Below are positions 90 to 61,390 of a DNA stretch of 64,000 nt, in pieces. The DNA lies in the NCBI GenBank assembly GCA_964016885.1, contig OZ024740.1, forward strand, positions 304,110,001 through 304,174,000, given 5' to 3'. The DNA is from Eledone cirrhosa (lineage: Eukaryota). Under the pieces are notes generated by a model. That model did not search any database. It was not told the DNA's origin and saw only the letters and a list, made by a program, of their open reading frames with translations. The translations under genes and the position numbers were made by a program. Within the stretch, counting starts at the first letter, position 1; each line of letters begins with the position of its first letter.

Positions 90-500
90 AGTAATAGACA
101 CAGATATATACCTATTTTTTCTTCAAAGTCCCGACTGTACAGTTTCGCTGGTCAGTTTGCACAATTCCACATTATAGATGTGTAATATTGTTGTGAGGCA
201 TACCAGCTTTTCAAGGAACTCCTCAGGGAAAGAACACTTTCCAGACACGTTCGTAGCAAGTGAGAACATCTCAAAAGGCGGAGGGAGAAATTACCACGTG
301 ATACGCCGGTCAAGAAAGGGAACTGAATCCCTTTGTAGCAAGTGAGAAATATCTCAAAAGGGGGAGGGAGAAATTAATACATACAGAGGTTACAGGCGGG
401 TAGTAAGGTGGACTGAAAGCGATTACATTGTTTGCTTTAGAAGCAGTTACTATACTTTCGGGTTAACTCAACCATAAGGGAGTTTGAGACAATATCATAA
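90..500 (-). mobile_element. Penelope-like element 3' end / pLTR remnant
   Basis: Abuts (TA)n at 45-81; carries a hammerhead-like motif on - (127-220) and a 41-bp direct repeat (253/335). Family assignment is inferred from architecture. Confidence 0.45.
127..220 (-). ncRNA. Type-I hammerhead ribozyme motif, U3:A8 core variant
   Basis: Minus strand: AGUUCC-UUGAAAA-GCUGGU..(49 nt)..ACCAGC-GAAAC-UGUACA-GUC-GGGACU; 6-bp stem I, 6-bp stem II, palindromic stem III. Confidence 0.65.
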
Positions 501-675
501 TGAGAGACACACACACACATGTGTATACATACATACGTATGTATATATATTTTCACAAGCATGTGAGTGTATGTGGTGTCAACCTTAACCAGTTTTGCTC
601 TATGATTACGAGAGACAAAATAATCGAAATAATTAAATTGACTCGATATCAAAGCTATACAACAATATATATTTG

Positions 676-867
676 ATATAGAAATGGCTTCTACAGGACG
701 AGAACTGTTTCATTCGGGAGAAATCATCAAGGCTTCCTGATGATTTCTCTCGAATGAAACAGTTCTCGTTCTGTAGAAGCCATTTCTATATTAATATTTA
801 TACTCTGTTATCTATTGAGTACCTTACTTACTGTGGTTACCCCCGATTGAACCCGGGATAAACTTAT
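676..867 (+). mobile_element. Fold-back PLE-type fragment with degenerate hammerhead-like core
   Basis: ~55-bp inverted arms over 676-791; CTGATGA 737-743, GAAAC 756-760; a second family member lies at 48001-48194. Confidence 0.6.
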
Positions 868-1009
868 CTAAGAAAATATTTTTTATTATAATATGTATGC
901 ATACGCACCTATATATATATAACTGTTATATTTATATTATGCCTAGATGAAACACTGTGTAAGGAGTAAATTTTGTTTTTGAATGTATCGCTTTCTCCAT
1001 TTATTTTTG

Positions 1010-1011
<2 letters not shown>

Positions 1012-1090
<79 letters not shown>
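1012..1090. repeat. (TA)n microsatellite (representative; others at 1346, 12724, 31270-31430, 43610, 45590, 54843)
   Basis: Direct sequence. Confidence 0.98.
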
Positions 1091-1094
<4 letters not shown>

Positions 1095-1104
1095 GGAAGG
1101 TAAT

Positions 1105-1146
1105 ATGATGCTGACGATAGCTAATAAGCTTGAAACTAGTACATCG
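1105..1146 (+). ncRNA. Minimal type-I hammerhead ribozyme motif
   Basis: AUGAUG-CUGACGA-U-AGCU-AAUA-AGCU-U-GAAAC-UA-GUA-CAUCGU: all core nucleotides present, 6-bp stem I, palindromic ACUAGU stem III. Confidence 0.7.
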
Positions 1147-1342
1147 TTCCTGTGTCAGTGTTGAACAAAAAGGTGAGGTGGTTGCCTAAACACTGTACAG
1201 CGTAATTCGGGCTGTTTGTTTGTTTACAAACAAACCGAGCATTATAATAAATGTTCGGTAAACCGATATGTGTGCATGTATGTATATATATACATACTAC
1301 TGTACGTCTGTATACATATATGTATGTACGTATACATACATA

Positions 1343-1396
<54 letters not shown>

Positions 1397-1397
1397 C

Positions 1398-3321: not shown

Positions 3322-3350
3322 TATCAGCAACATAATCTAATTAATAATTA

Positions 3351-3650: not shown

Positions 3651-3803
3651 GTATAATCTAATTAAACACTTCTTTATTACCACATACACACACATATCCA
3701 ACTTGTAGTATAGTGGCTTTCTAAAGCTTCGAAATGTTCACAATATACTATCTCCTTATAATATATAACCAGCAATTTCTCTGTCTGTCTGTCCGACAGT
3801 GGA

Positions 3804-4052: not shown

Positions 4053-4209
4053 ACAGAAACATATATACATTTCTGTGTGTGTGTAATATATATATATATA
4101 CACACACAGAAATATATATATATACACACAGAAATATATATACATTTCTGTGTGTGTAATATATATATATATATACACACAGAAATATATATACATTTCT
4201 GTGTGTGTA

Positions 4210-4240
<31 letters not shown>

Positions 4241-4266
4241 GAAATATATATACATTTCTGTGTGTG

Positions 4267-4313
<47 letters not shown>

Positions 4314-4400
4314 GAAATATATATACATTTCTGTGTGTGTAATATATATATACACACAGAAATATATATACATTTCTGTGTGTTTAATATATATATATAT
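4053..4400. repeat. Array of palindromic units CACACAGAAATATATATACATTTCTGTGTG separated by variable (TA)n
   Basis: About six full units plus partial ones read directly. Confidence 0.9.
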
Positions 4401-4438
4401 ACTAGCAGAAAACCGCCCACCTGGTGGTTTTGTGGTAG

Positions 4439-5024
4439 TCTATATATATATAAAACTGAGGATGTTTATCTGTGTGTGTGTGAGTTTGAATCCCTAAAAC
4501 TAGAGAAGCACCCAACCGACTGTTTTCAAACTTTACACATGTAATACTTATGTTTCAGGGAGTGTTCTGAGCATAAAAATTTAAAATTTTCAATGCCCTA
4601 GGGACCGCATTAGGCGATTTAGCTATCTCTCTCTATAATTCTTAGTCTTTCCCTTTTTAGATAGATACATACATATAACGTCGCACCCTTATAATATGTG
4701 TCTGTATGTCTGGCTGTCTGTATTACGTCACTTCCTACAATTCGCTCTGCGTCCAAAACGCGCCCTTATAATATCTGTCTGTATGTCTGCTGCCCCCGGT
4801 TATTCAGCCACCCTTGCTCAAGACAAATCTCACACTCATTGCCCAAACAGTTGGTAAGTGCACACGACTTCTTCCTCACGTTTTAAGCCACAGAGTTGCT
4901 TAGTTACGTACCACCAGACCCTTACTTCTTTGCCAGCTGTGGTTGTGGCAATACTAAGCTTAGCTAAGGCGGTTATATATTTCACAATACCTTATCCCGT
5001 GCAACGCCGGGAACCACTGCTAGT
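4439..5024 (+). mobile_element. Non-autonomous Helitron-like element
   Basis: 5' TCTATATATATATAAAA then TG-rich tract; 3' hairpin CCCGTGCAACGCCGGG (4996-5011) followed by CTAG-T (5020-5024). Confidence 0.65.
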
Positions 5025-5273
5025 ATGTTAATAAATAAATCTATATTAAATTTTACGTGATGAAGATTTTAGTTAACATAAATAACAACAATTATTATGA
5101 TTATACTTATGAAAGGGCGGTGGGTTGGCAGTAATCGGTAGAGCGTAGGACAACATGCTTTGCAGCATAGAGCTATGATCTTTTACGTTCTGAGTTCAAA
5201 TCCCGCTGAGGATTTTTTTTTCACGTCAAAATATATATACATTTTATTATTCCTAGCAATAATTAATTGGGCA

Positions 5274-5741
5274 TACGTTAAGACGGGCGTTCCGGAAAGT
5301 GAAAGTAAAATTTTTGACAACTGTGAATTTTTTTTTTTTTATAGTGAAAGTTACGATACACACGCGATTATATGGATTTCTTAATATATATATATGTGTG
5401 GGTGTGTATATGTGTGTACACTGTGAATTTGTTTGTTTATTTACAACAGGTCTCTATAGTGATATGGTGTTAATTAGTATTGCGTGTGTGATTATTTTTT
5501 CTTTAGATAGACGTTAAACGATGATGATGACACAAACACATATATATATACAAACACACATATATATATACATACAGACACACATATATACACACATATA
5601 CACACCCACACGTATATATATATTAAGAAATCCATACAATTGCGTGTGTATCGTAACTTTCACTGTAAAAAAAAAAAAAAAAAAAAATTCATAGTTGTCA
5701 AAAAATTTACTTTCACTTTCCGGAACGCCCGTCTTAACGTG
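5274..5741. mobile_element. MITE with ~120-bp terminal inverted repeats
   Basis: ACGTTAAGACGGGCGTTCCGGAAAGTG... is mirrored at ~5612-5740; it interrupts a repeat that is contiguous at 18060-18140. Confidence 0.8.
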
Positions 5742-6291
5742 TTTACATTTTCATTTTGTAAGAATTATAAACAATTTGTAATGTTATTTATACAACTGTG
5801 AATAATTAAAATTATACATATTTTGCATGTCATCCTTACGAGGTCGATAAAATAAAGCACTAGTAATGCACTGGGTCCGATTTAATCGACTTTCCTCTCC
5901 CCAAAATTGTTGGCCTTGAGTCTAAATCAGAAATCATTGTGATAATATTTATGACAACAGTGATAACAATATTAACAAACATAAAACTGATAATGATGAG
6001 GACAATCTTATTCCTATGTTGATATCGAAGATGAATAAGTCTCTAACGTTTAAGAGCAAACGGCATTTCTTAAAGAGCACCAAAAGTAGAGGACGTAGTC
6101 AGCCAGGTAACTGTTACAGTATCGCGATGAAAGGTCCATCGGCATTGCCTGTTTGTGTTCCATGAAATTCTTTTCCTCACTATAATTCAAATCCTCAATA
6201 GACTTGGATTATAGTGAGAGTGGGCTGTGCAAGACAACCAAATCGACTTTTTGGATAAGTGGCAAGGCGTGTCGGAATGACTGGATGTATT

Positions 6292-6633
6292 TTTAGGCGG
6301 GGTGGTCAGACATCCCGTCTAATTGGATATGGTATACTGGCACATAGTCAAACAAGGAAGAAGGAACATACCTCAATTTTATGTTATAGAAACTTTTTTT
6401 TAATAGGAGCAATTACAGAATATATTCAAATACATTAGTGCTCCTAGGTTGGGATATATTTTAGTCGTCATATAAAACCGCATGGTGTGATATCGTCTTT
6501 TGGATCATTGCGTGAGAAAACACGTCTATCGCTTCCGAGTTATCATCGTCCAAGAGCTATTGTCTCAGCTACTGACGTCAGAACTAAGGGCAGTTAATCG
6601 ACTGCCTTCACATAGATGGCGTGATCTTCTACA
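6292..6633 (-). repeat. 3' LTR
   Basis: Direct repeat of 10827-11183; starts TGTAG on -. Confidence 0.95.
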
Positions 6634-6699
6634 TGGCCTCCCACCAGATTTTTAGAAAATTAAATAAAAATCGGTTCATCGAATCATGTATGTAGAAAA

Positions 6700-8014
6700 A
6701 CCGCTTAGCAACCAGCAAAAGAAGCAGGTGTGTGTGCGAAAGAAAAAGTCGGGGGCGTAGCTCAGGTGCGATAGCATCTGTATCCAAATGTGCTCGTTTG
6801 AGTCTATCAATCGAAACCGTCTCTCTGGAACCCTTAATGTCTACAGTGAAATGTTTCTCTGAACGAGCTAATACACGGTAGGGTCCAGAGTATGGTTGTG
6901 TGAGAGGTGGTTTCACAGCATCGTTTCTCACAAACACATAGGTCCACGAGGCAATATCCCTAGGGACTTCAAATTGTATAGTTTGCTTCCTCGTATCAAT
7001 CGGCGGCAGGTCCTGAAAATAAGAACGCAGACGGGATACGTAGGAAAGCGGATCTTGTTCAGCAAGCATTTGCCCGGGAGCAAGCATTTGCCCAGGTAAC
7101 GCTAGAGGAGCACCATATAACAATTCGGCCGGGGAGAACCCAAGGTCCTCCCTTATGGTTGACCGAATCCTCAACAACACAATAGGGAGGTACTCGCTCC
7201 AGCGCGTAGAGTCAGGAGAAGTCCGTAGAGCGGCTTTCAGTTGTCGGTGGAAGCGCTCCACCATTCCATTAGAGGCAGGATGATATGCAGTAGTTCGGAT
7301 GGGTTTAGCGCCGATGATCTTCGTAAATTCATGGAAGAGGTTCGATTCAAACTGCCTTCCACGGTCCGTGGTAATTGACGTTGGTACTCCATATCGAGCG
7401 ATCCATCCAGACACAAGGGCACGCGCTGTGGTCTCAGCAGTGATATCCCTCAAGGGGATGGCTTGGGGCCATCGCGAAAAACGATCGATTACCATCAATA
7501 AGTAATTGTAACCACCGCTGATGGGCCAAGGTCCCACGATGTCCACATGAATGTGGCGAAACCGGGCGTCCGGGTTACTAAAAGTACCAAGAGGAGTCTT
7601 AATATGTCTATTAACTTTCGATTTCGGGCAAGCAACACAGGAACGGCACCAGACAGTAATTTCACGTCTCATATTTGGCCAGAAGAATCTAGCCGTTATG
7701 AGTTTTATTGTGGCAGATCCAGGATGTGAAATGCCGTGCAAAACAAGAAACACAGTTCGACGATGGTTCAACGGAACAAAAGGGCGTGGCGTATCCAAAG
7801 AGACGTCGCAGAGGATCCGTTCGTCTGCGGTCGGTAAAGTTAGGTTTTTCATCCTGCAATTCACAAATTCAGGTGATGTAACATCCAACGATTCGAGGGT
7901 AGGCTGATCGGCTGCCAAGCGATTCAAATCTATGTCATCGGACGACGAGACTGAAGTAATCGGTAAACGAGACAGGGCGTTGAATATCATTTGTAAACTG
8001 AGAGATGAGGTCAA
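6700..8014 (-). pseudogene. Gypsy integrase
   Basis: HHCC ([12 protein letters not shown]), DDE ([23 protein letters not shown]) and GPY/F (PYSGPYRV) motifs; 18-bp in-frame duplication [12 protein letters not shown]. Confidence 0.92.
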
Positions 8015-9625
8015 TATGCCTAGTTTCGCTAGGCGAGTATTTGTCGGCCTTTGCTTGCAAGGCGAATGTCAACGGCTTGTGGTCCGTGAAGATGGTAAAC
8101 GTTCTTCCCTCAAGCATGTGCGAAAAATGTTTCACTGATAAATATATTGCTAGCAACTCCCGTCCAAAGGTGCTGTAGCGGGTTTCGGCAGGTTTCAGCT
8201 TCCTGGAGAAAAATTCCAACGGTTGATCGTTTCTACGTTGCTGCAAAACTGCTCCCACGGCAGTATCCGACGCATCAACACAAAGCGAAAGCTTAGTGTT
8301 GGACACTGGGTGAGCTAGCAAATATGCATTGGCTAGAGCAATTTTCGTACTCTCAAAATCCTGGAGCTGAGTTTCATTCAAAGAAATGTCTCTATTTTTC
8401 TTTCGGCAATTTTTCAAAATTTCCGTCAAAGAGAAGAGTAGCTTAGCACAATTAGGCACAAATTGCCTATAAAAATTAATCAGCCCCAAGAATTGGCGCA
8501 ACTGGCGGAGTGAGGTTGGTGGAGGCAAATCCTCTATAGCTTTAACTCTCTCAGGAATAGGTCGAATACCGTCAGCGTCAATGACGTGACCCAAACAATT
8601 CAAAGATTCGGAACCAAAAACACATTTTGATGGATTAATCCAAACATTGTAATTCTTCAAACGACAAAATAGAAGTTCCAGATGGCGCAAATGCTGTTCT
8701 GGAGAAGAGCTCGCAACAAGAAGGTCATCAATGTAGGTGTATACAAAGTCGAGGCCGCGAGTGACCTCATCCATAAAACGCTGGAAGGTGCTAGCAGCAT
8801 TCCTTAACCCGAAAGGCATGGTGAGAAATTCGAAAGAAACAAATGGCGTTTTCGGGATGTCGTCTCTATTGACAGGAATTTGGTTATAGGCTCGTATCAA
8901 AATCCTGCAAATGAGGGATAGGATACCGATCCGGTACGGTCATCGAGTTCAATCTTCTATAATCTCCAGTGGGTCTCCAATCGCCAGAAGATTTTGGCAC
9001 CATATGTAATGGAGATGCCCACGGGCTCGTGGAAGGACGAATAATTCCGAGCTGTAGCATATGATCGAACTCGGACCGTGCTGCTTTCAGTTTGTCCGCT
9101 GGCAATCGATGGGGACGCGAAAAAATCGGAGCGCCAGTTGTAGTAATAAAATGCTCCGTGGCGTGGCCTGGATCAGTGACTCTAAAATTTTCATGAGTCA
9201 GTTGCGGGAACGATTTCAACAGTCCATGATATGGGTTTCCAGAGTTAGCAATGAAGAAAGTCGGGCTAACTGTAGAAAATTCCGCCGTCCTGCCACAAAG
9301 AGAAAAACCAGTAATATCGTCGATTAGGCGTTGGTGACGAACGTCCACCGTCAAAGAAAAATGGTGCAGGAAGTCCGCGCCCAAAATCGGGTATGGCAGA
9401 TCAGCAACAGTGAAAACTCTTTTGAAATCCCGACGAAGATTTCGGAACTGAAGAGGAAGCGAGATCTGTCCAAAAGTTCTGATTGTTGACAGCTTGCAAT
9501 TCAATCGACGACTCAGGAGGAGTTACTGTCATAGTATTAACAAGCCAAATACTGCACGAAGCTCCTGTGTCCACTAGGAAGGCTCTTCCAGACAGGAGGT
9601 CCTCAATGAAAAAATGGCAGTTCCG
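7935..9625 (-). pseudogene. Gypsy protease-reverse transcriptase-RNase H, frameshifted
   Basis: FLVDTGAS (~9560-9583), [40 protein letters not shown] and FTDHKPL, split over several frames. Confidence 0.93.
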
Positions 9626-9729
9626 TTTTGTCTCGCAGAGTTCACTTGCCGCCTTTAGTGACTCTGATCCATATTTCCCGAGGCCGAATAATTACACGGA
9701 GGCCGGCAATACGCGAAGGTAGCATGGTA

Positions 9730-10405
9730 CCAGCACAATGATGGGTTGCTGGCGGGCGAAGTAGTACGCCGACGTGGAGTCGCGAAAGAACGCGAACGAC
9801 TCCTAGGCCGACGGGAATACGGCCTATTCTCCCTTCATAATCGAGCGACTTGCGTCAAAGCGTCAAAAGCCTTCAACATGGCATCCTAGCGTGTCGAGGC
9901 GGGCTGCAATATGCGAGTCCGAGGCGGTAGCCTTTTTAGAAAATTACACGATTCGATCCGCGGAGGCAGCAATTTGCTCCAAAGAGCTGGTGTCCACTAT
10001 ATTTGCCAAAATAATTTGGACGTTGTTTGGCAGGCGAGAGAAAAATAATTTTTTTATAAAGGAATTATCCTGTTCGGGCGATTCACTGAGGTCCCTAATG
10101 TGGCGCAAAAATTCGGACGGCGACCTATCGCCTAGATACTCATCCTTCAACAATCAACGAAATCTGCTTTCAGCAGAACGACTGTTCCTTCGAAGAATTT
10201 CTTCCCGCAACGAATCATAGGAAATACTGGCCGACGGGATCGTAATCAAATCTTTCACTGTTACAGCGAGTGAAGAAGGAATACCACTTACTAAAAAGTT
10301 GAGCTTTTGCTCGGTTTTCACTTCGTTGGCAGCGAAATAAGCGTCGAGCTGCGCAAACCAGAGCTTAGTATCACCTGAGAACGCAGGCAAACCAGGACCA
10401 CTCAT
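9730..10405 (-). pseudogene. Gypsy gag, interrupted
   Basis: LPAFSGDTKLWFAQLDAYF, LGDRSPSEFLRHIRDL and LFFSRLPNNVQIIL are typical of this gag type; stop at 10154-10156. Confidence 0.85.
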
Positions 10406-12681: not shown

Positions 12682-12769
<88 letters not shown>

Positions 12770-12845
12770 CGAAGGAAATGTGGTAAGGAACCAGGTGGAC
12801 CATAACGCACCAAAGTACTCAATACTTGGGGTAGTAGAGTGGGTA

Positions 12846-12948
12846 ATAGGAACCAGTAAGACCCCGACAGCTGAGCTCAAGCCGTTTCGTCCAGAATTAG
12901 CCGTCGAAACGGCTTGAGCTCAGCTGTCGGGGTCTTACTGGTTCCTAT
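12846..12948. repeat. Perfect 44-bp inverted repeat in a PLE-type fragment
   Basis: Arms 12846-12889 and 12905-12948, 15-nt loop; element flanked by (TA)n; homologous fragment at ~60195-60292. Confidence 0.9.
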
Positions 12949-12964
12949 ATATATATATATATAT

Positions 12965-13110
12965 ATATTCATTTATTATGGTTATTGGTGAGTTTTGTTA
13001 CTCTAAAGTTTCACCTGCGCACTCACAGGATCATCAGTCTTGTCTGATGATCCTGTGAGTACGTAGGGAAGACTCCAGAGTACAAAGGCTTAGCCATAAT
13101 AAATGAATAT
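12965..13110. mobile_element. Fold-back PLE-type fragment with hammerhead core in both arms
   Basis: + arm TTGT-CTGATGA-TCCTG..TAGG-GAAGAC-TCCAGA-GTA-CAA; - arm CTGATGA-TCCTG..CAGGT-GAAAC-TTTAGA-GTA-ACAA. Confidence 0.7.
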
Positions 13111-13578
13111 TTAAACTCTACTTAGGTATTGTGCTTTCATTCTTACGTCCGTCAATTATTCACGTACTCTCAGGTTTTGAATAATCATCCCCTGCTTATT
13201 AATTTTTCAGACCCCCCCCCCCCCGGTTTTTATTCCACCCCGTTCCCCACACGCTTATCAAATTTTGCTAATCTATCTCCTACAACCTCTGCCACACCCT
13301 CGAATGAACAACAAACTCAAACCAATTCCTTCCATCGTTACATCCACTCCACATTCATCGCTCGCTACACAACTCACCATCAACTTCGCTACACTCAACT
13401 CACATGCCTATTCGCTACATATCTAACTATTATTTTAGTCTGGATAAGGTCCTTGTGGAAATAGAATCTGAGTGGCCTCAGACGATTGAAGGTATATCTG
13501 TAGCGAAATGTGTCGACCCATGTCTTGTGAGTGAACTTGGGTAGACAGAAATTGTTTGGAAGCCTTTCGAAAGGACTA

Positions 13579-13980
13579 TATTCTCGGGTCTCGAATAATC
13601 GTCCCCACCCTCGCTTATTAATTTTTCAGACCCCCCCCCCCCCTTCACCTCGCTCTTATTCCAACACCCCACTTATTAACTTTTCAGAACCCCTGCTTAT
13701 CAAATTTTTCTAATCTAACTCCGGCAAAATTTTATTTTAAGTGGCTGCATTCCTGCGACAATTAATTTTCTTTATACATTAAATGACCAAAAAATACATT
13801 ACAGGAAACCCCATGCGTTATAAAATAAATAGGATGGATTGGGGTCTTAATATGTAAACTGAACGACTAATTCTGGAGTGAAAAAAAAAATAATAATAAT
13901 CAATGGAGACAACCTAGAAAAATTATCGATTTTCCAACCACCCCCGCTTATTCCCCTCTATTATTTGGGACCCGAGAGTA
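13579..13980. mobile_element. TA-flanked Tc1/mariner-pogo-type MITE
   Basis: TIRs TA(C/T)TCTCGGGTC..AATAA / TTATT..GACCCGAGAGTA. Other copies at 14298-14649, 20781-21155, ~21540-21870, 30400-30744, ~37640-37929, ~53130-53495, 61618-61944. Confidence 0.85.
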
Positions 13981-15117
13981 CTGTAAAAGACTAGCCTTGT
14001 CACATACTGTGTCATGTTGAATCATTCTGAGAATTGTCATGGCTACATCTGGCTGTGAAATAATGTTCAACCATTTACTGTTACATTGACTGAAAAACTG
14101 GAACACTCATCGACGAAACCGACGGACATCCATTCCAAACCTTTCCCCGTCTTCCCCAGCTTATAGATGTGCTGTTTCTTCTCAGTCTCTTCTTTTCTAC
14201 TCCCTCGAAGAAACAATTTACCTACCCGATCCACCCAGGTACATCCGATTACTCCCGCTCCTGTTAGTTTTGTCAGCTCTTCTTATTAACTTCCATATAC
14301 TCTCGGGTCCCAAATAATTGAGGGGTTAGGTGGAATAAGCGGTGGGGGCGGGGGTAATTTTTTAGATTGACTCCGTTGAATTTTAAAAAACCCAGAATTA
14401 ATCGTTTTGTTTACATATTGAGACCTCATCCTATTTATTTTATAACGTGTGTATTTTATAACGCAGTGATGTTCTTTGTTTTTTAATGTATACAGAAAAT
14501 TAATCATCGCAGGATTACTACAACTTAAAATAAAATTTCACCGGAGATAGATTTGCAAAATTTAATAAGCGGTGTGTGTGTGTATGTGGGTGGATCTGAA
14601 AAATTAATACGTGGGGGTTGGGTGGACGATTATTCGAGACCCGAGAGTACGCTTTTCTCAATGGCGGCAATGTGTATCTGCAGGTGTTAAACCTGGATAT
14701 CAACAACATTGGTTTGACAATCTGGCTCATTTATTCATTTATTTTTCTGTTTGTGCCAGAAAGTAATATTTTAAATCTACAAGTCTGTTATTACATAAAA
14801 TAGTTTAGAATGAATAAAACCATTTAAGATATATAATAGTGCTATAAAACGTAGAGACATTTGAATGTGGTTCTCACTTGATAAACAAAGCTTCAACTTA
14901 CCTGGTATAATGAGAATTGCTGATTCACTTGACTCAGCGATTTTACAAAGTATAACCTTTATAAAACTCATATGTTGGGGAAAAAAATAAAATAAAAGGA
15001 TTCATTTGATTTACAGAAAGTCACTTCCAGTGGTGAATTGATATGTTTCTATTTTTAACCCTGCTAAATATAATTTATTCAATACAAATTCTTTATAATT
15101 CTAAAAATTGTTTATTC

Positions 15118-31427: not shown

Positions 31428-31449
31428 CTTTGTTTTTTAATTTGTTTTG

Positions 31450-39895: not shown

Positions 39896-40045
39896 ATGGG
39901 TCTTCTTACAGAAGGGTCTCCGCTTTCTTGGGAAGAAACGAAAACTTATGCCAACCACGTACGGAAGCATGGGGTGAAACAATTCATTAATCAATATAGT
40001 AAACTTAAGGATCGTCAAAAAGATGTTCTATACTGGGGAGATGAG
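39896..40045 (+). CDS. GCLC: Glutamate-cysteine ligase catalytic subunit, coding exon 1
   Basis: MGLLTEGSPLSWEETKTYANHVRKHGVKQFINQYSKLKDRQKDVLYWGDE is the diagnostic eukaryotic GCLC N-terminus; donor GTAAGT at 40046, phase 0. Confidence 0.97.
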
Positions 40046-43603: not shown

Positions 43604-43644
<41 letters not shown>

Positions 43645-43768
43645 AGGGGTATTTAATTTGTTGGAAGTCCGACAAATATAAATGTTTATAACTGATTTAG
43701 AGCACTCAACAGATTCCTGGAGTAAATATACAATGATATTAAAGAAACTATATTTATAAAACCATATT

Positions 43769-43831
43769 TATTTTATTATATATATTTCAAGGGTACCAAA
43801 ACACATTGGTATGCTTACCTCAGATAAAATA
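43769..43831 (-). ncRNA. Hammerhead-like motif (A9 to U variant)
   Basis: UAUUUUAU-CUGAGGU-AAG..UACCAA..UUGGUA..CUU-GAAA-UAUAUA-UA-AUAAAAUA; 8-bp stem I. Confidence 0.5.
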
Positions 43832-43834
43832 CAA

Positions 43835-44990
43835 TCATCATCATCATCATCATCATCAACGTTTAACGTCCGTGTTCCACGCTTGCATGGGTTTGGACGG
43901 GGGTAGTCCCACTTGAGGCAAGAGTGATTGTCTTGCTCGCATAGGACTGTCTGGCAGGTTTTCTACAGTTGGATGCCCTTCCTAACACCAACCACATTTA
44001 CAGTGTGGGTCTGGGAGGTTTTTACCGTGTTGCCTACACGGCCACATTACAGCGTGGACTGTGTGTTTTTTTGTCGTGACACCTACACGATCTCATTTGT
44101 TTCGGCCTCGATGGCGCGGCACCAACATAACTTTACATAGAACGGGGTGGTGTGGATGGGGTGGGGGTGGTGGTGGTGGGACGGGGTGTATTTTGTTAGA
44201 GATGCCTACTGGCTGGAGTAGGTTTTACTATATATTTAGGTAAGGCGGGTCTTCTCTGTTACTGAGTACCGCCAAAGGTCTCGGTCCAGTGACATTGTCT
44301 TGGAGAGGTGTAAGTGTGTGATGTCGGAGTTTATCAGCTCGTCCCAGGTTTTTCTAGGTCTGCCTATTCCGTGACTACTGTCTATCTTTATTGCCCTGCA
44401 CTTTGTTATACAGCTATCGACTTTCATGCGCATCACGTGTCCATACCAACGTAGCCTTCTCTCGAGTAAACAACATCTGATCCCTCTTATCTCTAATTTT
44501 TTCCTTAGTTCGTTTATGCTTTGCCGTTCACGTATATTACTGTTACACATCCAGCGGAGCATGCAAGCTTCGTTCCTCTCTAGTCTGCGTATATCCTCTG
44601 CACACAATGCCCAGGTCTCACTGCCATGCAGCATTGCTGTTCGTATGCAGGCATCGTACAACCTGCCTTTCATTTTTAGGGAGAACCCTTTAGCAGCTAA
44701 TAGTGGTATAAGCTCTCTGAACTTTTTCCAACCAGTTCTGACTCTAGCTACAGTACTTTCAGAGCACCCTCCCCCACTGCTGATTTTATCGCCCAGGTAA
44801 CGGAAGCTGTCCACTATTTCTATAGAACCCTCTGCGCAATTGAAAGAGCTAGTATTTTGTGGGCACTTGCTGCTACTTATTGCACCAGAGCACCGGCCAC
44901 ATGTAAAATCTATGTTCTTAGTTAGCTTACCTGTGATCCCACTACATCTTTTATGCACCCATACTTTGCATTTAGGACATAAAATGCAAT
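43835..44990 (-). mobile_element. RTE LINE 3' end: ORF C-terminus, 3'UTR and (ATG)n tail
   Basis: ORF 44236-44958: FRYLGD, AMLHGSETW, RRLRWYGHVMRM, GRPRKTW. Confidence 0.92.
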
Positions 44991-45002
44991 ATATATATAT
45001 AT

Positions 45003-45325
45003 ATAGTTATATTTGGGAATGGTCATTTTAACAATTGAACACATACACCACATAACTTTCACTTTATTTTTATTCTTCCCTCAAAGCTCTTTTGTCACAC
45101 CAATCTGTGACCTCCCCAATGACTATCGATTTTTGAGCTTCAAACAACAAAATGAAATAGAAATGTAAGACCAGAAAAAGGAGAGGCACAAAAAAATCGA
45201 TAATCATTGAGGAGGTCACAGATTGGTGGGGTGAAAGAGCTTTGATGGAAGAATAAAGATAAAGTGAAAGTTATATGGTGCATGTGTTCAATTGGCAAAA
45301 TGACCATCTCCAAATATAACAATAT
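45003..45325. mobile_element. Inverted pLTR pair of a Neptune-like PLE with decayed hammerhead motifs
   Basis: Arms ~45003-45136 and ~45188-45325; ATCA-TTGAGGA-GGTCACAG..GAAA-GAGC-TT-TGAT at 45203-45246 is homologous to 31609-31651. Confidence 0.8.
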
Positions 45326-45588
45326 CGGTTTCAATACTCGATTTCAAATCAAGATTCCTGCTTAACAAATACACATATATATATATGTGTGTGTAAAAGG
45401 TAAACAAATAACAACACAATCTGTACAGTATATGGAAGGAATAATATATATATATTTATATATGTCAATGATATCTACATATGACATATGTATAATATGG
45501 GCGCGTGTTATATGTATATGAAAAGCAAAGTGAAATAAAGCATCTTGACCAGGAATTGAATATGGTTAAGAGTCCAACACCCTAACCG

Positions 45589-45627: not shown

Positions 45628-48000
45628 CACACAAACACACTCAAAAATATAGATGGAAAAATTAGCTTTTAAATGTAATTTTCCCATCTATATTTTTATT
45701 TTTTATTTTTTTAAAATTATATTTCCAACTTTTTCTCCTTAAAAAAAAATCTACCTTTTCTTCAGACCAATAATATATAAACACATTGAGCTAATTCTGA
45801 AACTACGTGGGCAATTATATATACATTTGAGCTTTGTATATATATTTTCACCTTTGCTATATATATATATATATATATAGTATACATGTGTTATATATAA
45901 AATATGTATGTAATTAGTATATTCAGTATGCTTGTTTTTAATACCACCACCACCCCTAGCTGACTCCACCCATAACCCTATCATTGCTACCTTGGAACAA
46001 TAATACCATGTATATTTGTGTACGCCCACATTTCCAACCCCGTCATTGATGCCTGAACATTTAACGCTCAGCCTCTACACATACACATCAACCAACACAA
46101 ACTGGACTTGCTCTATTAAACAAATACTTGCTATCACCAGTAACCCATACTACCTCCAGGCACTTCATATTCCCCGACAAACAACATTTTAAATAGAATT
46201 TGGAGCTCTGTCTGTTAGGTTCCCAATATGTTTTTTTATTTTTTTTTATTTCTGGCCTGTGCTTAATTTTCCCTGGCTTTTGTCATTGTTAGTGTTGTGG
46301 TTGTTAGTGTTTGTGTTGTCTGCCTCGGTGTCTTTATTATGGAGCAGCATGGTTTCAATGGTTATGAAGTTCACTTTGCAATCATTAGGTCCCAGGATCA
46401 ATCATTCTGTATGGCATCTTGGGCAAGTGTCATTTATCATATTCTTGGGTTTGTTAGTGAAATTGGTTAGATGGAAACTGTAATTCAAAGAGCCAGCTTT
46501 GTCACACTGAAGTACATGTGTCTGTGGAATGCTCAGCCTCTTACATGTTAATTTTGTTAACAAGCTATTGTTTCATTGCTGGAACAACTGGAACACTATC
46601 ATCAAAACTGATGGAGATCCACTAGTCTCTTCCTTATTCACAAAGTTAACTGTACCGACCATTCTGGAATTCTAATGAATTTATGAGATGTTAAGCTAGT
46701 AACTTCTATGATTATGTTTTAACCTTCTTTACCTTTCATAATACCATCTAATAGGTACAGAACAGGTTGATAAAGGCATAAAAAACAAGTAAATTTACTC
46801 TTTATTTTCTCTCTGTTTGTTCCATTGATCTTTTGGATGGTGATTGTTTAGCCATTAGAAAAAGACACATCTATTCCATCCACCAGTTTTGTAACAACAT
46901 TTTGTTACTCTGAGTTCAAATCCCGCTGAGGTTAACTTTGCCTATCATCCATACGGAGTCGATAAAATAAAGTACCAGTAATGTACTGAGTAATTGCTGG
47001 CTTTGTGCCAAAAGTAGAAACAATTATTTGTCATAGGGCGATGGATTGGCAGTATTGGTAGAGCGTCGGACAACATACGTTGTGGCATATAGTTACAGCC
47101 CTTTTACGTTCTGAGTTCAAATCTTGCCAAAGTCAACTTTGCATTTTATTATTACAAGTTTGATAAAATAAAGTACCAGTAACACACTAGGTTGATTTAA
47201 TCGACTTTCCCCTCCCCTCAAAATTGTTGGCCTTGTGCCTAAATCAGAAACCATTATTAATCCTTAAAGGGTTGATAAAATAAAGTACCAGTAACACACT
47301 AGGTTGATTTAATCGACTCTCCCCTTCCCTAAAATTGTTGGCTATGTGCCTAAATCAGAAACCATTATTATTATTTGTCATCTTTATATGCCCTACTTGT
47401 AGAAAACAAAATAGCTATAGGGTTTTCAGGATAATACTATTACAATATTTATATCTAATGTAGAAAACAAGATAGTTATAGAGTTTTCAGGATAGTACTA
47501 TTAAAATATTTATATCTAATATTTGTCATCCACCACAGGTGTAATGAAGAAGAGTTAAATCTCTGTGTTCTGCGATGCAAATAAATTTCCCTTGTAACAC
47601 TAACCTAGTTAATGTTAAGTTGTTCATGTTATTGATTAGTCCCATGTCAGTCATGATCCACCAGTCCAGCAGATCTATATATGATCAAATCTGTTGCAGT
47701 TATGACCATTCTGTTTTTATTTTGAAACATAATTTAGCTAGGACTACATTATCCAATTCACCTTTGCTCTTGTAAAATGATAGAGTTGTTTCTGATAGGG
47801 CCTTCTGGAAGGCATCTCTGAGAACTTGGACTCTCCGACTGAAGGAAGAGGAGGAGGAAGATGTTCTGCTGAACTTCATACTTTTATCCACTGAGTTGAG
47901 GGATATTGTTTATGTTGGACATCAGCCTCATCAATTTCTGAAGCAGTGCCAAAAAGACATGCACACATAAAAAAAGAAAAACAAACATATATATATTTAT

Positions 48001-48194
48001 ATAAGTTTATCCCGGGTTCAATCGGGGGTAACCATAGTAAGTAAGGTACTCAATACATAGTGGAGTATAAACATTTAATATAGAAATGGCTTCTACAGGA
48101 CGAGAACTGTTTCATTCGGGAGAAATCATCAGGGCTTCCTGATGATTTCTCCCGAATTAAACAGTTCTAGTCCTGTAGAAGCCATTTCTATATT
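48001..48194. mobile_element. Fold-back PLE-type fragment, same family as 676-867
   Basis: Hairpin 48077-48194; the tail is on the left in inverted orientation. Confidence 0.7.
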
Positions 48195-54837: not shown

Positions 54838-54893
<56 letters not shown>

Positions 54894-54902
<9 letters not shown>

Positions 54903-55567
54903 ATACTTGGGGAGGGTCATATTTGTGTAATATTGCCAGAATTAATAACAGAACACACTCACTGTTTGGTTGGTTTTCGCTTTTCGCTTCTGTGTCTTTT
55001 ATATCGGTAATCTAATTTATTCGGTCCTCAATGTTGCCATTGACTGACCAACGGTCAAAAATAATACAGATACAATATAGACACAAACACATATATATAG
55101 TTTATCAAAGTTCTTTCGTTGCACATCTGCAACATCGTCAAATATAGAATACATTAACCAATACACAGTCACCCAATCACGAACACACATCAAACAAAAC
55201 ACTATACACACACGCAAACGCATGCGCAAAGAAGACAAAATAAAATAAACAAATAAATAAATATATAAACAGACTAAATAAAGATGGCGTAGAAAATACA
55301 ATGTAACGGGAGGAAACAATAGCACCACTGACGATGTTGCAGATGTGCAACGAAAGAACTTTGATAAACTATATATATGTGTTTGTGTCTATATTGTATC
55401 TGTATTATTTTTGACCGTTAGTCAGTCAATGGCAACATTGAGGACCGAATAAATTAGATTACCAATATAAAAGACACAGAAGCGAAAACCAACCAAACAG
55501 TGAGTGTGTTCTGTTATTAATTCTGGCAATATTACACAAATATGACCCTCCCCAAGTATAACAATAT
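54894..55567 (+). mobile_element. 5'-truncated PLE: inverted pLTR, 3'UTR and pLTR with hammerhead motif
   Basis: ~240-bp near-perfect arms 54894-55140 and 55329-55567; spacer shares ACGCATGCGCAAA and AAGATGG with the PLE UTR at ~31690-31742; CTGACGA-T-GTTGCA-GATG-TGCAAC-GAAA-GAAC-TT at 55328-55361. Confidence 0.85.
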
Positions 55568-58163
55568 TTGTTTTGACACACGATTTCATATAAAAAACCT
55601 CGCAAAGCTATATATATATATATTTCTTTTTGCATATACAGGAGATTACCTTTATGTGATCTGACATATGTTTGCATCTAAAGTACATTTACTTTTATAG
55701 CCTGTGACCTTAGATAATAAAGGTCAGGGGAAATGAGTGAGAATGAGGTGATTATAAATGATATGGCAATTGATATGAAGTTTTTAAAGAAGGACTGGGG
55801 TGGGTATCTTTGTGTTTGAAGAAGTAATAGAATTTATATAGAGGTGTTTGGGATATATGAAATTAGGGAGGAGTGTGGGTTTAGTGTGTGTGGGGGGAGT
55901 ATAAGAGCTATCATTATGGGAGATAAGAGAAAAAAAGTTTGTTTAATCAAGAAACTTGTAAACCTGTAGTAGTATCAAAGAAACAAGAATAATCACCCCA
56001 TCCCACCCGTCACATTTTTACTTGAAAAAAACCTAGTTAATATGACAGTTGTGTCTTATTTTATTTTTTAAAGATAAAAAAATCTGTACTTTTTTATGTA
56101 GTAGTGCTGGTGGTAGTAGTATCAGTAGTAGTAGTAGTAGTAGCTACTGTTGTTTAACCCCAAGACAACCCTGATCCCACAGTGACCATTCCATCCAATG
56201 CTTTTTCCTCTGTGCAAGAAACCACATTATTCAATAGGGTTTTTGTTTTTAATTGTAGCATGTGGTTTGAGGAAGATTTAGCTACTATTTACAGCAATTT
56301 GAGCAACCATGAAGAGGCTCCTTCATTGGCTCAGGGTATGTTGTAATGGCCATGACTGGTGTGATAAGCTGTCTCCTATCTTATAAAAGAGACACAATTT
56401 TCCCCACTTTAATTGTTATATACAGCTACTAAGTGACACCACTCACTTAACTTCTTTCTTTCTTTTTCATTTAGTATTTTGCCAAATAACCTATTTTCCT
56501 CTTTCACCCCCACCCACACTTGTGCTGTAACCTGGAGCAGTTCAAGCTACTTACATCACAGTGGTTATCTGTTTTATGAAATAATTACTCAAGTCACTAG
56601 GCTTGTCATGGTCATAGAAGAATAAAGAAGAAAGTAGAATAGAGTTCTAGGTTGACAGACATAACAAATACTGTATTGTTATTCTATTCTTTAACTCTTT
56701 TGAGACCACCTCTGCTGTTCTGATACAAAATCATGCATTTTAAAATGTTCTTGTGAAGTCACATGGCTTGGTGGTGAGGCTGTTGTGCTCATGAATTGAA
56801 TACCTGAACTAATCAGTTCATTGTGTACTTCAGCCAAACACTATTTCACATTGTTCCAGTTCACTTGGCTGGAAAAGAGGAATTGCAATGACACGTGTTC
56901 CCAGCTATATCGACCTCTGCTTTTCCCTTGATCAGCAATGATAAAAGAAGACCATCCTTCTAAAATGTTCTTATTTAAATTAAAACCTCACACCATAATT
57001 TAATGTAAGAACCTATTTGTTCAGGTTTGTTCCGAAAAGCAATTTTTTTTTTTTTTCAAACCACCTCATTCGTCATTCAAATTTTATTTATATAAATGCT
57101 TCATATAATAAACAGGATGAAAGTAAAAAAAAAAAAACAATAATGAATGGGGAGGGGAGGGTTAGACTGCACCTCAGTCAAGGTTGTATATCTTAGCTGT
57201 GTCCTGCAGCAGACAAAATGGGGACAACATTGCCACAAAAAACAACCAGTGACACCTACTGCTTCAGCCACTCAAACACCAGATTAATAATTGTTTCTAC
57301 TTTTTGGCACAAGGCCAGCAATTACCCAGTGCATTACTGGTACTTTATTTTATCGACCCCCGTAAGGATGAAAGGCAAAGTTAACCTTGGTGGGATGAAG
57401 TCCAACACCTTTACCAACTAAACCACACACCTCCACAAGGTTTTATAGGTCCAGTACATATGCCTCATACTAGTTTTTCCATCATATTTTTCATGAAATA
57501 AAGTTGCAACATACATTATATTTCATTAAAAATATCGTTATAAAAGGGTGAAATGTTTAAAATGTTCTTTTGAAGTGAGAAGATTGAATATACCACCTTT
57601 CTTTCTGTTTGTCTGTCTGTCTTTCATGGACTTTAGACTGTATTCCATTCATTGTGTTGTACCTTTTTAAGTCACATAGTCTCAGTCATTTAACTCTTTT
57701 GTTATCATATTTCTAATTTTAAAAATAATCAAGAATTTTGAGGGATTTGGTAATATAGCTAATTTTCTCATTAAGCTGGTGTTTGGAACATAACTTCACA
57801 AAAGTTACTCCCATAAAATTATGATGGAAGATTTATCAATACTTTAAAATAAACAGTCTTGTACCATAGAACCAGGGGTGGTTTCAGACTGTTTGGTATC
57901 AAAAGGGTTAATTATTTATGGCTTAATGAGAGGGAGAAGGGCAATGCTTATGACTCTTTTCAGGAAGTCTCTTATCTCTAGATGTGTGGAAGGAAGGAAG
58001 TTAACTAGTTTACTTGGTTGATAACTGGTCCCACTTGCATCACAGCCGTATGTTTAGTAATAGGTGAGATTCTAGATGAGAGTCGATGAAACAGTAGTAG
58101 GTAGCTCAGCTAACATTGAGTTAAAATGCAGATTGCTTTTGTATCAAAATACGTCACTAAAAC

Positions 58164-58257
58164 TGTATTTCTCATGTGTAAGTTGTATTTCTCATGTGTA
58201 AGTTGTATTCTCATGTGTAAGTTGTATTTCTCATGTGAAAGTTGTATTTCTCATGTA
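58164..58257. repeat. 20-bp minisatellite, ~4.7 copies
   Basis: Unit TGTATTTCTCATGTGTAAGT. Confidence 0.9.
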
Positions 58258-59047
58258 ACAGTGTACTACAAATATAAAAGTTAAATTCAATCCATCAGTT
58301 AAGAAAACATTTTCTATAAGAAAAAACAAAAACGTTGGAAAAGGGGTTATGGGTAATTAGTATTTTTTTAGGCTTAATGAAAATGGATGGTGTAAATTTA
58401 CACTAAAAAATGTTTTATATTTGATACGTATATAAATTTGAATCTTATGTAAGCAATTTGAGATACATTAAAAAAATTAACCAAAATATAGACAGCTGGA
58501 TAAATATTGTTGCTGATAAAGAAAAAAAAAGCAAGGAGAAAAAGGATGAAGCTGAAAATGATTTTTAAAACAGTCACAAGCCACAAATTTTGGGGAAAGA
58601 GTAGGGTTGACCACATTACATGACTGAAGGCATAAAAGGAAACATTTGATCTCAGAATGAAACTAGATACTGTGAGGCATTTAGTCTGGCATTCTACCAA
58701 TAATAAGAATAATGATGGTGGACTATTTACAACAGAAAACTGAAGTTGTTGTTTAGTTTCAGTTCAATCATGAACAACTAACACCTATAATCAAAGGTAT
58801 TCCAGCAGTTTTTTTTATATTGTTTGCAACCATAGTGTATCTAGGATTAAACTATCCAATGCAGCCTCCTCTTTTTTAAAGACAGTAGAGTGTGATATTA
58901 GGAAGCTTTAACTACTATTGAATGAATGACCATGTAGAGGTGTCCTCATTGGAAAAGCTTTTTTCAAAGCTGTATAATCATGTGTAGTGTATAAATATAG
59001 TGTGGCTGCAGCGTGGTTGAGTGGTTAAGAAGTTTGTTTTGTAATCA

Positions 59048-59237
59048 TTAGGTCCTGGGTTCAGCCCCACCATGCGGCATCTTGACCCAAGCCTTGTGAT
59101 TGATACTGGTGTTAGGTCCTGGGTTCAGCCCCACTGTGTGACATCTTGCCCCAAGCCTTGTGATTGATACTGGTGTTAGGTCCTGGGTTCAGCCCCACTG
59201 TGTGGCATCTTGCCCCAAGCCTTGTGATTGATACTGG
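59048..59237 (+). repeat. 64-bp tandem triplication inside a SINE head
   Basis: Units start at 59048, 59112 and 59176. Confidence 0.92.
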
Positions 59238-59559
59238 GTTGACAGAAACTGTTTGGAAGCCCATCAGATTGACTGTACCTGTAAATAATAGGCCCAGCCT
59301 TGTCACACACTGTCATGCTGAATCTCCCTGAGGATTATGTTATGGGTCTGTGTAATGCTCGACCACTTACATATTAGTTTCAAGAGCTGATGTTCCATAG
59401 ATTGAACAACTGGGACAGTCATCATCAAAACCAACAGATGATCACCATTCATTCATACAGAGATTAGGTAGAGAAAGGAAAGTTGTATACTGTATAAAAT
59501 GAAAATGAATTATGACAGTGGCGTTTCTAAACAATATCATCTGTTCTCTTTCTATACAC

Positions 59560-59992
59560 ACATGAGTCATGGGCCTTGATCACTGAACTGCAAAGAAAGA
59601 TCCAAACAAAGGAGATAAAATGTGCTATAGAAGAATCCTAGATAATCTACACAGAACACACGACAAACAAGGAGGATCACAAAAGAATCACCCAATATGT
59701 GACTCACTTTGAAGATCTGCTGACTACGGTGAAGAGGAGGAAGCTGAGGTGGTTTGGGCATGTAACAAGATCGAACGGACTCTGCAAGACAATTCTCCAA
59801 CGAAAGAGACGAAAGAGGTGGGGCAGACAGAATAAGCGGTGAACAGACAACGTAGCTGAGTGAACAGGAAAGAACTTTGCCACAACCCAAGCACTCACCC
59901 ATGACCGCCAGAACTGGAGGCAGTTGGTGCAGCATTCAACACTGCGGTGTCTCAATGACTTTAAAAAGGGTTAAGGGACCATGATGATGATC
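59560..59992 (+). mobile_element. RTE (BovB-like) LINE 3' fragment
   Basis: EDLLTTVKRRKLRWFGHVTRSNGLCKTILQ; (ATG)n tail. Confidence 0.75.
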
Positions 59993-60314
59993 ATTTGTTC
60001 AGAATGTAACTATTTGACTATTGAAATTATCAATTCTGCTATGTATCTTCTTTATTCTTGACATCATCTATATTTCTGAAGTGAAACTTCATTGATATAT
60101 AATGTTTATGTGCTATATATGCTTTAGCTGACCGGTTTCTTTCAATAATGCATATATATATATAAATCAGGGTGGATTTAGTTTGAAACTGGTTAGACCA
60201 TTACTCAACAGTGTACTTGGTACTTGGGGTAGTAGAGTATGGTTATATCATAAAGAGTCAGGACCCAGATGGCTGAGCTCCTGCTGTTTCAACAGCTTGT
60301 TCCATATATATATA

Positions 60315-60646
60315 GCTGAGTGGTTAGAGCATTGGCCTTGCAATCGAAAGGTTGTGAGTTCAATTCTCAGACTGGGTGATGTGTTGTTTCCTTGAGCAAG
60401 ACACTTTATTTCACATTGCTCCAGTTTACTCAGCTGTAGAAATGAGATGATAGGGACTGGGGTCCCTATCATTCCACTGCAAAGTGGTCGTGGAGGTGCC
60501 ACGGCAAAAAAGCACCCAGCACTCACTGTAAATGAGGTTGGTGTTAGGAAGGGCATCCAGCTGTAGAAATCAAGCCAGAATCAGTTCCCGTCCCACCCTT
60601 GCAAGCAGGGAAAAGCGGACGTAAAATGAAATGATGATGATGATGA
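60315..60646 (+). mobile_element. Young CORE-type SINE with RTE-derived tail
   Basis: Reverse complement of 43272-43589. Confidence 0.88.
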
Positions 60647-61144
60647 TATATATATATAAACGATGATGATGATGTATATATATATTAATTCATTATAAGT
60701 ACAGATTAAAGTTTAAGCAAAAAATCGCTGCTTTCACCCTTTTACAGGATGGATTGGCAGCATTGGTAGAGGGTTGGACGCCATGCTTTCCAGCATAGTT
60801 ACGTCCCTTTACGATCTGAGTTCAAATCCCGGTGAGGTTGACTTTGCCTTTCATCCTTACGGGGTCGATAAAATAAAGTACCAGTAATGCACTGCATAAT
60901 TGCTGGCCTTGTGCCTAAAGTAGAAACAATTATTATATATATATAGAGCGGTGGATTGGCAGTATCAGTAGAGGGTCGGACGTCATGCTTTGACGCATAG
61001 AGTTACGGCCCTTGTCATTCTGAGTTCAAATCCCACTGAGGTCAACTTTGCCTTTCATCCTTACGGGGTCGATAAAATAAAGTACCAGTAATACACTGGG
61101 TAATTGCTGGCCTTGTGCCAAAAGTAGAAACAATTATATATATA

Positions 61145-61390
61145 TAGTATAAACAAAGTTTCATACACTTAATATGTATGTGCAACCGTTAGTTTTGGGG
61201 TCAGGTTATGGTCACCAATGTGGACAGATATATGAAAAGGGAAATAGTCCCTTTTTCATAAATCTGTCCACGTGCCCGAGGAAGGACCAGTTTAAAAGTG
61301 CCTACTCCAATATACAGTGTTGGCCATAACTGGACTCTGAAACCAATGGTCACATATACATGTTAAGTGCATGAAACTTTGTTTATACTA
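61145..61390. mobile_element. Fold-back PLE-type fragment with nested hairpin and decayed hammerhead motif
   Basis: Arms 61145-61213 and 61321-61390; inner hairpin 61220-61271; CCGAGGA (61276)..GAAAC-CAATG-GTC. Confidence 0.65.

Follow-up and report, generated by a model that had tools for sequence, protein, structure and literature searches.

Predicted minimal hammerhead ribozymes in probable 5′-truncated Penelope-like element ends across 64 kb of the Eledone cirrhosa genome

Canonical endonuclease-bearing Penelope-like elements (EN+ PLEs) have a GIY-YIG endonuclease (EN) at the C terminus, target (TA)n, and leave 5′-truncated copies, head-to-head inverted copies with a palindromic junction, optional one-sided tails, and solo pseudo-long terminal repeats (pLTRs) moved in trans (PMC8557442; PMC3846280; PMC11167929). 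The optional tail has been explained by two start sites for the reverse transcriptase (RT), and in the sole reconstituted system cleavage is dispensable for insertion (PMC11167929). Heterogeneous families of minimal hammerhead ribozymes are tied to truncated PLEs (PMC4209133), where their role is stated to be unclear (PMC8557442). We analyzed a 64,000-nt stretch of the Eledone cirrhosa genome (assembly GCA_964016885.1, contig OZ024740.1, positions 304,110,001–304,174,000, forward strand; hereafter the window, numbered from its first letter), in which a first-pass annotation had proposed hammerhead topology at ten or more loci. We conclude, with a probability of about 0.85, that these loci are 5′-truncated 3′ ends (pLTRs) of eight PLE families, pasted into the genome by target-primed reverse transcription of uncleaved RNA. 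The core finding is a published pattern in a new host, with one family, which we call E, being a PLE pLTR that carries a minimal hammerhead.

Much of what we observed resembles the account of Cervera and de la Pena 2014 (PMC4209133), which describes many families per genome, mostly solo, with opposite-strand pairs 100–700 bp apart, an extra nucleotide separating positions 9 and 10.1 (as in our family E), a palindromic stem or loop III, and a U3-A8 covariant (as in our family A). Unlike the 7–8 bp stem II described there, stem II spans 57–61 nt in our families A and G, and U10.1-U11.1 occurs here in three unrelated families (B, C, and D). In the parts of that paper available to us, the piling of copy ends at the ribozyme is not covered and the present host group goes unmentioned. 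A U-U at 10.1-11.1 is itself already known (PMC3088659; PMC7229834). In the accessible literature we found no report of octopus hammerhead families, apart from Naiad and Hydra octopus entries in the Craig supplement; a 2026 octopus repeat annotation counts 893 unclassified, recently active families of short interspersed elements (SINEs), and the word ribozyme is not used in its available text.

A strict type I hammerhead descriptor matched the window three times (cores at 737 +, 1111 +, and 226 −), whereas 40 local dinucleotide shuffles averaged 0.025 matches and never gave more than 1. When a scored scan tolerated one mismatch in the core, seven matches reached a score of ≥26, versus 0.15 in 20 shuffles; six of the seven are previously named loci and the seventh (3126 −) resembles chance. 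Since one shuffle reached a score of 30.3, the highest among them, a single mid-scoring match is no proof alone. Scan matches at 3126, 13479, 22612, 46605, and 24174 (scores 21–26, partly in the shuffled range) were taken as chance and excluded from every count, as were the inverted repeats at 5248–5767, 13695–14570, 23372–24189, and 45643–45697, which contain no hammerhead. Self-BLAST sorted the 11 named loci into families A, B (two loci), C, D (two loci), E (three loci), F, and G; two half-hammerhead loci, forming family H, brought the total to 13 loci in eight families, each with all or part of a predicted hammerhead. The annotated diversity of unrelated families was borne out.

The topology at individual loci fared less evenly. 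All 11 named coordinates are recognizable as hammerheads, but the core and all stems are intact at only three (B at 737, C at 1111, and A), the rest being decayed or half copies. Single core defects are found at 48139 (G12U), 31647 (G12A), 45207 (C3U), 43823 (A9U), 61276 (U4C), and 13044 (GAAGA); locus 55328 has a stem I mismatch and locus 1398 is heavily decayed. The palindromic stem III described for these loci is perfect on direct reading in A, C, and F, but imperfect in E, G, and D. At 11/11 named loci, at least one arm has a (TA)4+ run no more than 221 nt downstream, against a background at random positions of 15% (one direction) or 24% (either), and a (TA)6+ run lies within 260 nt at 10/11 (background 10% or 16%), as the annotated association with (TA)n predicts; this is not a blind test, since the loci were chosen by a reader who saw the TA runs. 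Inverted repeats, also annotated as common, account for seven of the 11.

PLE origin and TA targeting, which had been suggested from the sequence, are supported by the linkage of family E to a GIY-YIG remnant, by one-sided tails on six fold-backs, and by hammerheads found behind related proteins. The broken 3′ end of a PLE open reading frame (ORF) occupies 31884–32650 (−) and encodes an RT thumb region followed by a C-terminal GIY-YIG domain (PF01541, E 4.6e-6) with a CX4CxxC linker and a CCHH motif; the ORF remnant proper is 31884–32441 (−), homology continues through the broken thumb region to ∼32650, and the RT core is absent. The pLTR of this element (31428–31883, −) contains the family E hammerhead at 31609–31651, with G12A and an extra nucleotide after A9, then a tail and (TA)n/(TG)n; the core lies 237 nt behind the GIY-YIG stop. 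The loci had been described as mostly lacking an ORF, which is true of 10/11, but locus 31647 follows this remnant, which had been overlooked. The other two family E loci are fold-backs, one at 45001–45374 (cores 45118 − and 45207 +, both decayed, with a ∼45-nt tail on the right arm only) and one at 54895–55608, whose arms are 96–99% identical and whose inverted arm reaches only to U4 of the core (55140), the direct arm having a core at 55328 and a 41-nt tail.

Stem covariation was detectable in family E stem II: in five rows from three loci, from which the structure itself was derived, both partners have changed in two of the five stem II pairs (three of 11 over all stems), and 94% of 51 cells pair versus 27–51% for slid partners. 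A sequence-only model of the family matched only its own five building rows. Two word-based protein searches with the GIY-YIG remnant gave no match, whereas a full HMMER search succeeded, returning 1442 relatives at E ≤ 0.001; among 99 longer relatives that have the linker motif, 95 place the GIY-YIG domain on the C-terminal side of the RT. Hammerheads were sought behind 10 related loci on metagenome contigs, eight of which have room after the ORF: three carry intact minimal hammerheads at +132 to +162 and two carry one-letter variants, and two of the eight end in (TA)n. Repeated TGACGTCA (CRE-like) words lie between stop and hammerhead in L001, L002, L003, L005, L006, L007, and L010 and are a candidate pLTR promoter. 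Linkage to a GIY-YIG or RT ORF was seen for family E but for none of the other seven families in the window, and these seven were assigned by structure because the window holds no second ORF of the lineage.

The ends of the copies bear on how they were made. All six fold-back structures (in families B, D, G, and H and the two in E) are head to head, with an extra tail at the 3′ end of one arm. Among 19 definable 5′ ends in the window (with D counted once), 13 fall between the stem I 5′ strand and GAAA, two lie 17–30 nt upstream, four lie far upstream, and the cut site has none; when the downstream parts were used as BLAST queries, the window yielded no additional copies without a ribozyme. The absence of ends at the cut site is in line with an uncleaved template, as shown for PAc, whose substrate is uncleaved RNA (PMC11167929). 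The end positions suggest one of two causes: an RT that stalls at the folded ribozyme (the 54895–55608 structure, G, and H), or RNA that begins at stem I (B, C, D, and F). Taken further, the second option would make the whole pile-up a true RNA 5′ end, either a start site or a 3′ splice site located at stem I, and perfect palindromes would later have been trimmed at their center. Families B, C, D, and F do start at the stem I 5′ strand, the B and D junctions are short of a perfect palindrome by only 6–7 nt, and in Drosophila virilis Penelope the 5′ end of helix I is where an intron ends (PMC4209133); however, the arms of the 54895–55608 structure, G, and H end inside the core or stem II, though family E RNA extends far upstream. 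We regard this alternative as a serious possibility, while leaning against it.

Under the truncated-pLTR reading, and following published PLE biochemistry, the GIY-YIG protein would nick both strands in TA-rich DNA and the RT would start at either of two RNA sites, yielding the optional tail; priming from both nicks, or self-priming, would produce the head-to-head fold-backs. Judging from the copy ends, the template would not be cut at NUH, and copying would tend to end either inside the folded ribozyme or at the ribozyme's 5′ edge. The ribozymes are predicted to cleave at NUH, weakly and mainly as dimers via the palindromic stem III. Dimer cleavage is reportedly the subject of a study by Lunse et al. 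2017. Transcription through a fold-back is predicted to mask the ribozyme, the computed hairpins reaching −92 and −81 kcal/mol, and most copies in the window would be dead.

Family B is a short, abundant unit. Its first fold-back (666–866, +) consists of an inverted short arm (673–729), an intact hammerhead (731–781) with U10.1-U11.1, a 4-bp stem III, and a GUA site, and a tail at ∼795–866. In the second (47985–48194), the long tailed arm is on the minus strand and begins at C3 (48132), while the short arm on the plus strand begins at stem I (48133), so the loop has opposite orientations relative to the tailed arm in the two fold-backs (a flip-flop). The stem III self-duplex is computed at −12.8 versus −1.4 kcal/mol for the hairpin. 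We surveyed the family over positions 83–1005 in four sequencing runs (two contig sets and two runs of restriction-site-associated DNA (RAD) reads; four of the seven listed). Summed depth over the unit, relative to bins 393–454, was ∼4,500x in X1 and ∼25,000x in X4 (a second organism), and it falls ∼30-fold or more immediately outside the unit; summed depth is not a copy number, and with single contigs at a depth of 5–26 the family would number, very roughly, on the order of 10^4–10^5 copies. The loop III consensus has a CUAG center in 94–98% of the depth.

A sharp start near 731–734 with mixed flanks was present in 4/4 runs. Loose ends before 734 numbered 159 and 188 contigs and 1448 and 1693 reads, with low agreement (0.42–0.52), and in both contig sets the loose-end consensus finishes with the first letters of family B stem I. 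The 3′ ends at 858–867 run into (CA)n/(TA)n, and there is a second end near 794. No pile of ends was seen at the cut site (776) among the rows listed (24 of 1451 loose-end and 40 of 310 variant rows). Because they share a start and 3′ ends, many B copies are a ∼130-nt unit starting at the 5′ edge of the ribozyme; a minority may continue into a PLE body. The ribozyme part is only modestly deeper than the tail part (1.19 versus 0.90–1.02 million in X1; 0.52–0.75 versus 0.37–0.44 million in X4), and two-armed B copies therefore look like a minority. Metagenome and viral contigs were searched with a DNA pattern for the family and gave 0 matches. We take family B to be a probable short nonautonomous derivative moved in trans, and the label nonautonomous is apt for these copies with a common start and end; the other seven families need nothing beyond 5′ truncation of coding PLEs. 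Relative to canonical EN+ PLEs, B has shrunk to ∼130 nt, and tails here are ∼40–70 nt (longest in B and H) versus 30–40 bp there.

Non-LTR retrozymes (PMC7229834; Li et al. 2026, 10.64898/2026.07.22.740005) are likewise noncoding, carry a type I hammerhead, are of PLE origin (Li et al. 2026), and can be very abundant; the axolotl HHR_Amex2 already shows a U-U at the base of helix II. They are defined by tandem arrays and circular RNAs, unlike the dispersed solo or inverted copies here. The loci could nevertheless be solo offspring of such elements, if tandem arrays elsewhere were transcribed, cut by their hammerheads, circularized, and reinserted by a PLE protein. Read joints hint at head-to-tail units of B and A: in two RAD runs, B joints reach 45 nt back (778 to 734; 39 and 18 reads, nine and six starts) and A joints 564 nt back (658 to 95; 112 and 130 reads, five and three starts), monomer derivatives of retrozymes have been described in the literature, and the 4-bp stem III of B could work as a monomer. 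However, both joints are absent from both contig sets, no head-to-tail hammerhead repeat occurs among the 56 tandem-repeat rows of the window, the copies retain an entire ribozyme at the 5′ end rather than beginning at the cut site, and tails and fold-backs are marks of PLE insertion. We consider a retrozyme source quite improbable, and the designation retrozyme-like in the first-pass annotation was not supported in this window, with only weak read joints to hint at tandems elsewhere.

It is more improbable still that the fold-backs are miniature inverted-repeat transposable elements (MITEs) or other DNA-level palindromes whose hammerhead look stems from an old PLE piece or from chance. In keeping with such an origin, inverted repeats make up seven of the 11 loci, a 536-bp DNA duplication copied the entire D structure, the B loop is flipped between its two copies, and real MITE-like inverted repeats without hammerheads exist in the window. 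MITEs, however, have equal terminal inverted repeats and fixed ends, whereas the arms here are unequal, the tail is on one side only, and A, C, E (31428–31883), F, and H (60165–60303) include solo copies; the minority status of two-armed B copies, the motif excess over shuffles, and the covariation likewise argue against it.

Several observations weigh against the truncated-pLTR reading itself. Eight of the 11 named loci are defective, and none of the 111 Rfam matches to the window (up to E 10) is to a hammerhead or any other ribozyme family, the top ones being microsatellites matched to miRNA models. The z-scores of four monomer folds are weak (−0.9 to −2.2, barely better than shuffles), and families B and C have a minimum-energy fold other than the hammerhead one. 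In a published test, eight of nine predicted retrozyme dimers did not cleave. Target-site duplications are not readable inside (TA)n, and the tally of 19 ends is post hoc, small, and favors copies that still show a ribozyme. Only one of the eight families, E, has a coding remnant, with a six-frame profile search of the window finding no second PLE ORF of this lineage (profiles of other clades were not used), and among the eight related loci with room one hammerhead is doubtful and two loci have none. The lack of an Rfam match does not exclude membership, because minimal variants are descriptor-defined in the cited work; together with the weak z-scores, it argues against a strong canonical ribozyme and fits minimal variants.

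The relatives of the GIY-YIG remnant also point to an unusual RT. Between RT motifs 3 and 4 (RT3–RT4), 103 of 118 relatives have 129–138 amino acids, as do 8/8 proteins and 4/4 loci, compared with ∼60 in canonical PLEs and ∼118 in human TERT as counted from Fig. S1 (PMC8557442). The closest match to the window fragment among the 118 proteins is an Octopus vulgaris protein with the insert (47%), which, together with a SINE, fits an octopus-like host; since the window copy lacks the RT core, its membership in this lineage goes by thumb and EN homology. Seven amino acids separate CxxC from the next C in the window, and 6–12 in 121 of 150 relatives, which have CCHH, an RT4 of the GG[AP]IG type, and Hydra-like KDHK, RW, and DK[S/T] motifs. 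Pfam RVT_1 misses 5/5 tested relatives, so this lineage (including P0072, P0058, P0243, and L001–L004, and over 100 relatives) may escape annotation. A profile of the lineage found no TERT match by sequence in the PDB (best match DRT1, E 5e-4), and the comparison with the insertion in the fingers domain (IFD) of telomerase therefore goes by position and length only.

None of the clades compared matches these proteins throughout. Nematis shares the short CX2-5CxxC linker and CCHH, TA targeting, and a hammerhead in the pLTR, but has KTHK and an RT3–RT4 distance of ∼60 amino acids (PMC8557442). Hydra elements share KDHK, RW, and DK[S/T], TA targeting, and a hammerhead in the pLTR, but there CCHH is absent, the linker is CxCX5C, and RT4 is divergent (PMC8557442). 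Naiad has an N-terminal GIY-YIG and no canonical hammerhead, whereas here the EN is C-terminal and hammerheads follow it. A Neptune parent (CX2-5CxxC linker) was dropped after the short linker was seen. In the available text of PMC8557442, IFD-like regions are reported only in Naiad/Chlamys, TERT, and some Coprina. We found no description of the long-insert lineage in the literature or in the Craig et al. supplement, within partial coverage that did not extend to Repbase. Judged from the protein sequences, these relatives may form a large, widespread, and apparently undescribed PLE lineage that combines a C-terminal GIY-YIG with a long insert.

The abundant ∼130-nt B mini-element, the end pile-up, and the long-insert RT lineage may be new leads; without the mini-element and the long insert, the finding would be an expected feature of an invertebrate genome. 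A bolder combination of them, which we consider on balance unlikely, is that the hammerhead serves as a boundary and not a cutter, that uncleaved RNA is copied until the RT stalls in or slightly beyond the ribozyme, that this bred a 130-nt hammerhead-headed, TA-tailed SINE-like family whose copies in octopus-like genomes may number tens of thousands or more, and that at least one enzyme responsible for the insertions comes from an undescribed, widespread Penelope lineage with a C-terminal GIY-YIG and a fingers insertion of telomerase length. The thousands of natural ends in an abundant short family with an intact consensus ribozyme would help to decide between the cut site and the edge of the ribozyme as the boundary. 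Ends of this kind are easily mistaken for MITEs or unclassified SINEs. A lineage that has both a C-terminal EN and an insert of IFD length would bear on the relationship between PLE and telomerase RTs.

The remaining families differ in structure and preservation. The family A hammerhead (125–222, −) has an 8-bp stem I, a U3-A8 core at 214–208, G10.1-C11.1, a perfect palindromic stem III, and a GUC site; its stem II is a 61-nt hairpin and its 3′ end lies at (TA)19 (45–82). A second heptamer (C3-G8, CUGAGGA) lies 12 nt upstream at 226–220, and a 12-nt tandem duplication at 196–230 (−) yields both registers. The C3-G8 register was considered; the minimum-energy fold takes the U3-A8 core with the 8-bp stem I, and U3-A8 was preferred on folding. 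U3-A8 may be a true family covariant or a decayed 12-nt duplicate, and the contig and read records fit both; some contigs may carry only one unit of the duplication. RAD reads connect the repeated sequence at 560–660 with the 3′ end of family A, a hint of a tandem unit of ∼600 nt. Family C is a solo unit (1091–1265, +) between two TA-rich microsatellites that begins at the stem I 5′ strand and holds an intact hammerhead at 1105–1147, with an extended stem I from 1092 and an ACUAGU stem III. Family F is also solo (43640–43834, −), its hammerhead at 43769–43831 having an 8-bp stem I, A9U, and a AUAUAUAU stem III, with the 3′ end at (TA)14.

The family D fold-back (12961–13113) has cores at 13037 (−) and 13044 (+), a loop formed by the stem I 5′ strand, and a ∼50-nt tail at the right; its decayed copy (1392–1536) lies within a direct duplication (1392–1927 and 12961–13499; 536 bp, 90.7%). 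In the decayed copy (1452–1490 versus 13022–13060), both arms carry the identical core change beside the loop while the distal arms remain ∼70% alike, which suggests arm-to-arm conversion. A MITE-like family with terminal inverted repeats occurs in at least eight places (12969–13113 to 13499; 13578–14650; 1901–2527), and a remnant beside the D duplication is presumably hAT dimerization-domain-like. The family G fold-back (61141–61394) has a direct hammerhead core at 61276 with U4C, a 57-nt stem II, and a tail at the right; its inverted arm stops inside stem II. Family H, absent from the first-pass annotation, comprises a fold-back (12769–12946) with the tail on the left arm and (TA)n at both ends, each arm holding only the 3′ half of a hammerhead (C-GAAA, a long near-palindromic stem III, UC, and the stem I 3′ strand), and a solo remnant (60165–60303, −) between two TA runs that begins 13 nt before GAAA. 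The tails of the unrelated families H (12790–12845) and B (810–830) have a 10-nt word in common, which may be a motif for protein recognition or for RT start.

Other parts of the window show related or neighboring features. The inverted repeats at 23372–24189 and 45643–45697 (nested or TA-flanked) have no recognizable hammerhead and could be ends of hammerhead-less PLEs such as Naiad. At 4053–4452, an array of short palindromic units is interleaved with TA runs; no hammerhead fold was found there, and CUGAGGA occurs at 4456. The first coding exon of glutamate-cysteine ligase lies at 39896–40045 (+; E 5.9e-9 to 3ig5). Splice signal and frame put the apparent start of the next exon, which we take to be exon 2 of this gene, at 61487. 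The F locus, both E fold-backs, the second B fold-back, the solo H remnant, and G thus all appear to lie within one 21-kb first intron, with the G element ending ∼90 nt before the host 3′ splice site and its hammerhead, core mutated, lying on the sense strand. We speculate that the four long fold-backs in the intron (45001–45374, 47985–48194, 54895–55608, and G) might render the pre-mRNA double-stranded and a substrate for A-to-I editing. Further retroelement remnants are a frameshifted Ty3/gypsy-type pol at 6629–10220 (−), with RT and RNase H recognized by Pfam and integrase by reading, and RTs of long interspersed elements at 62298–63971 (+) and 44236–45006 (−), with a PHD-like finger after the RT.

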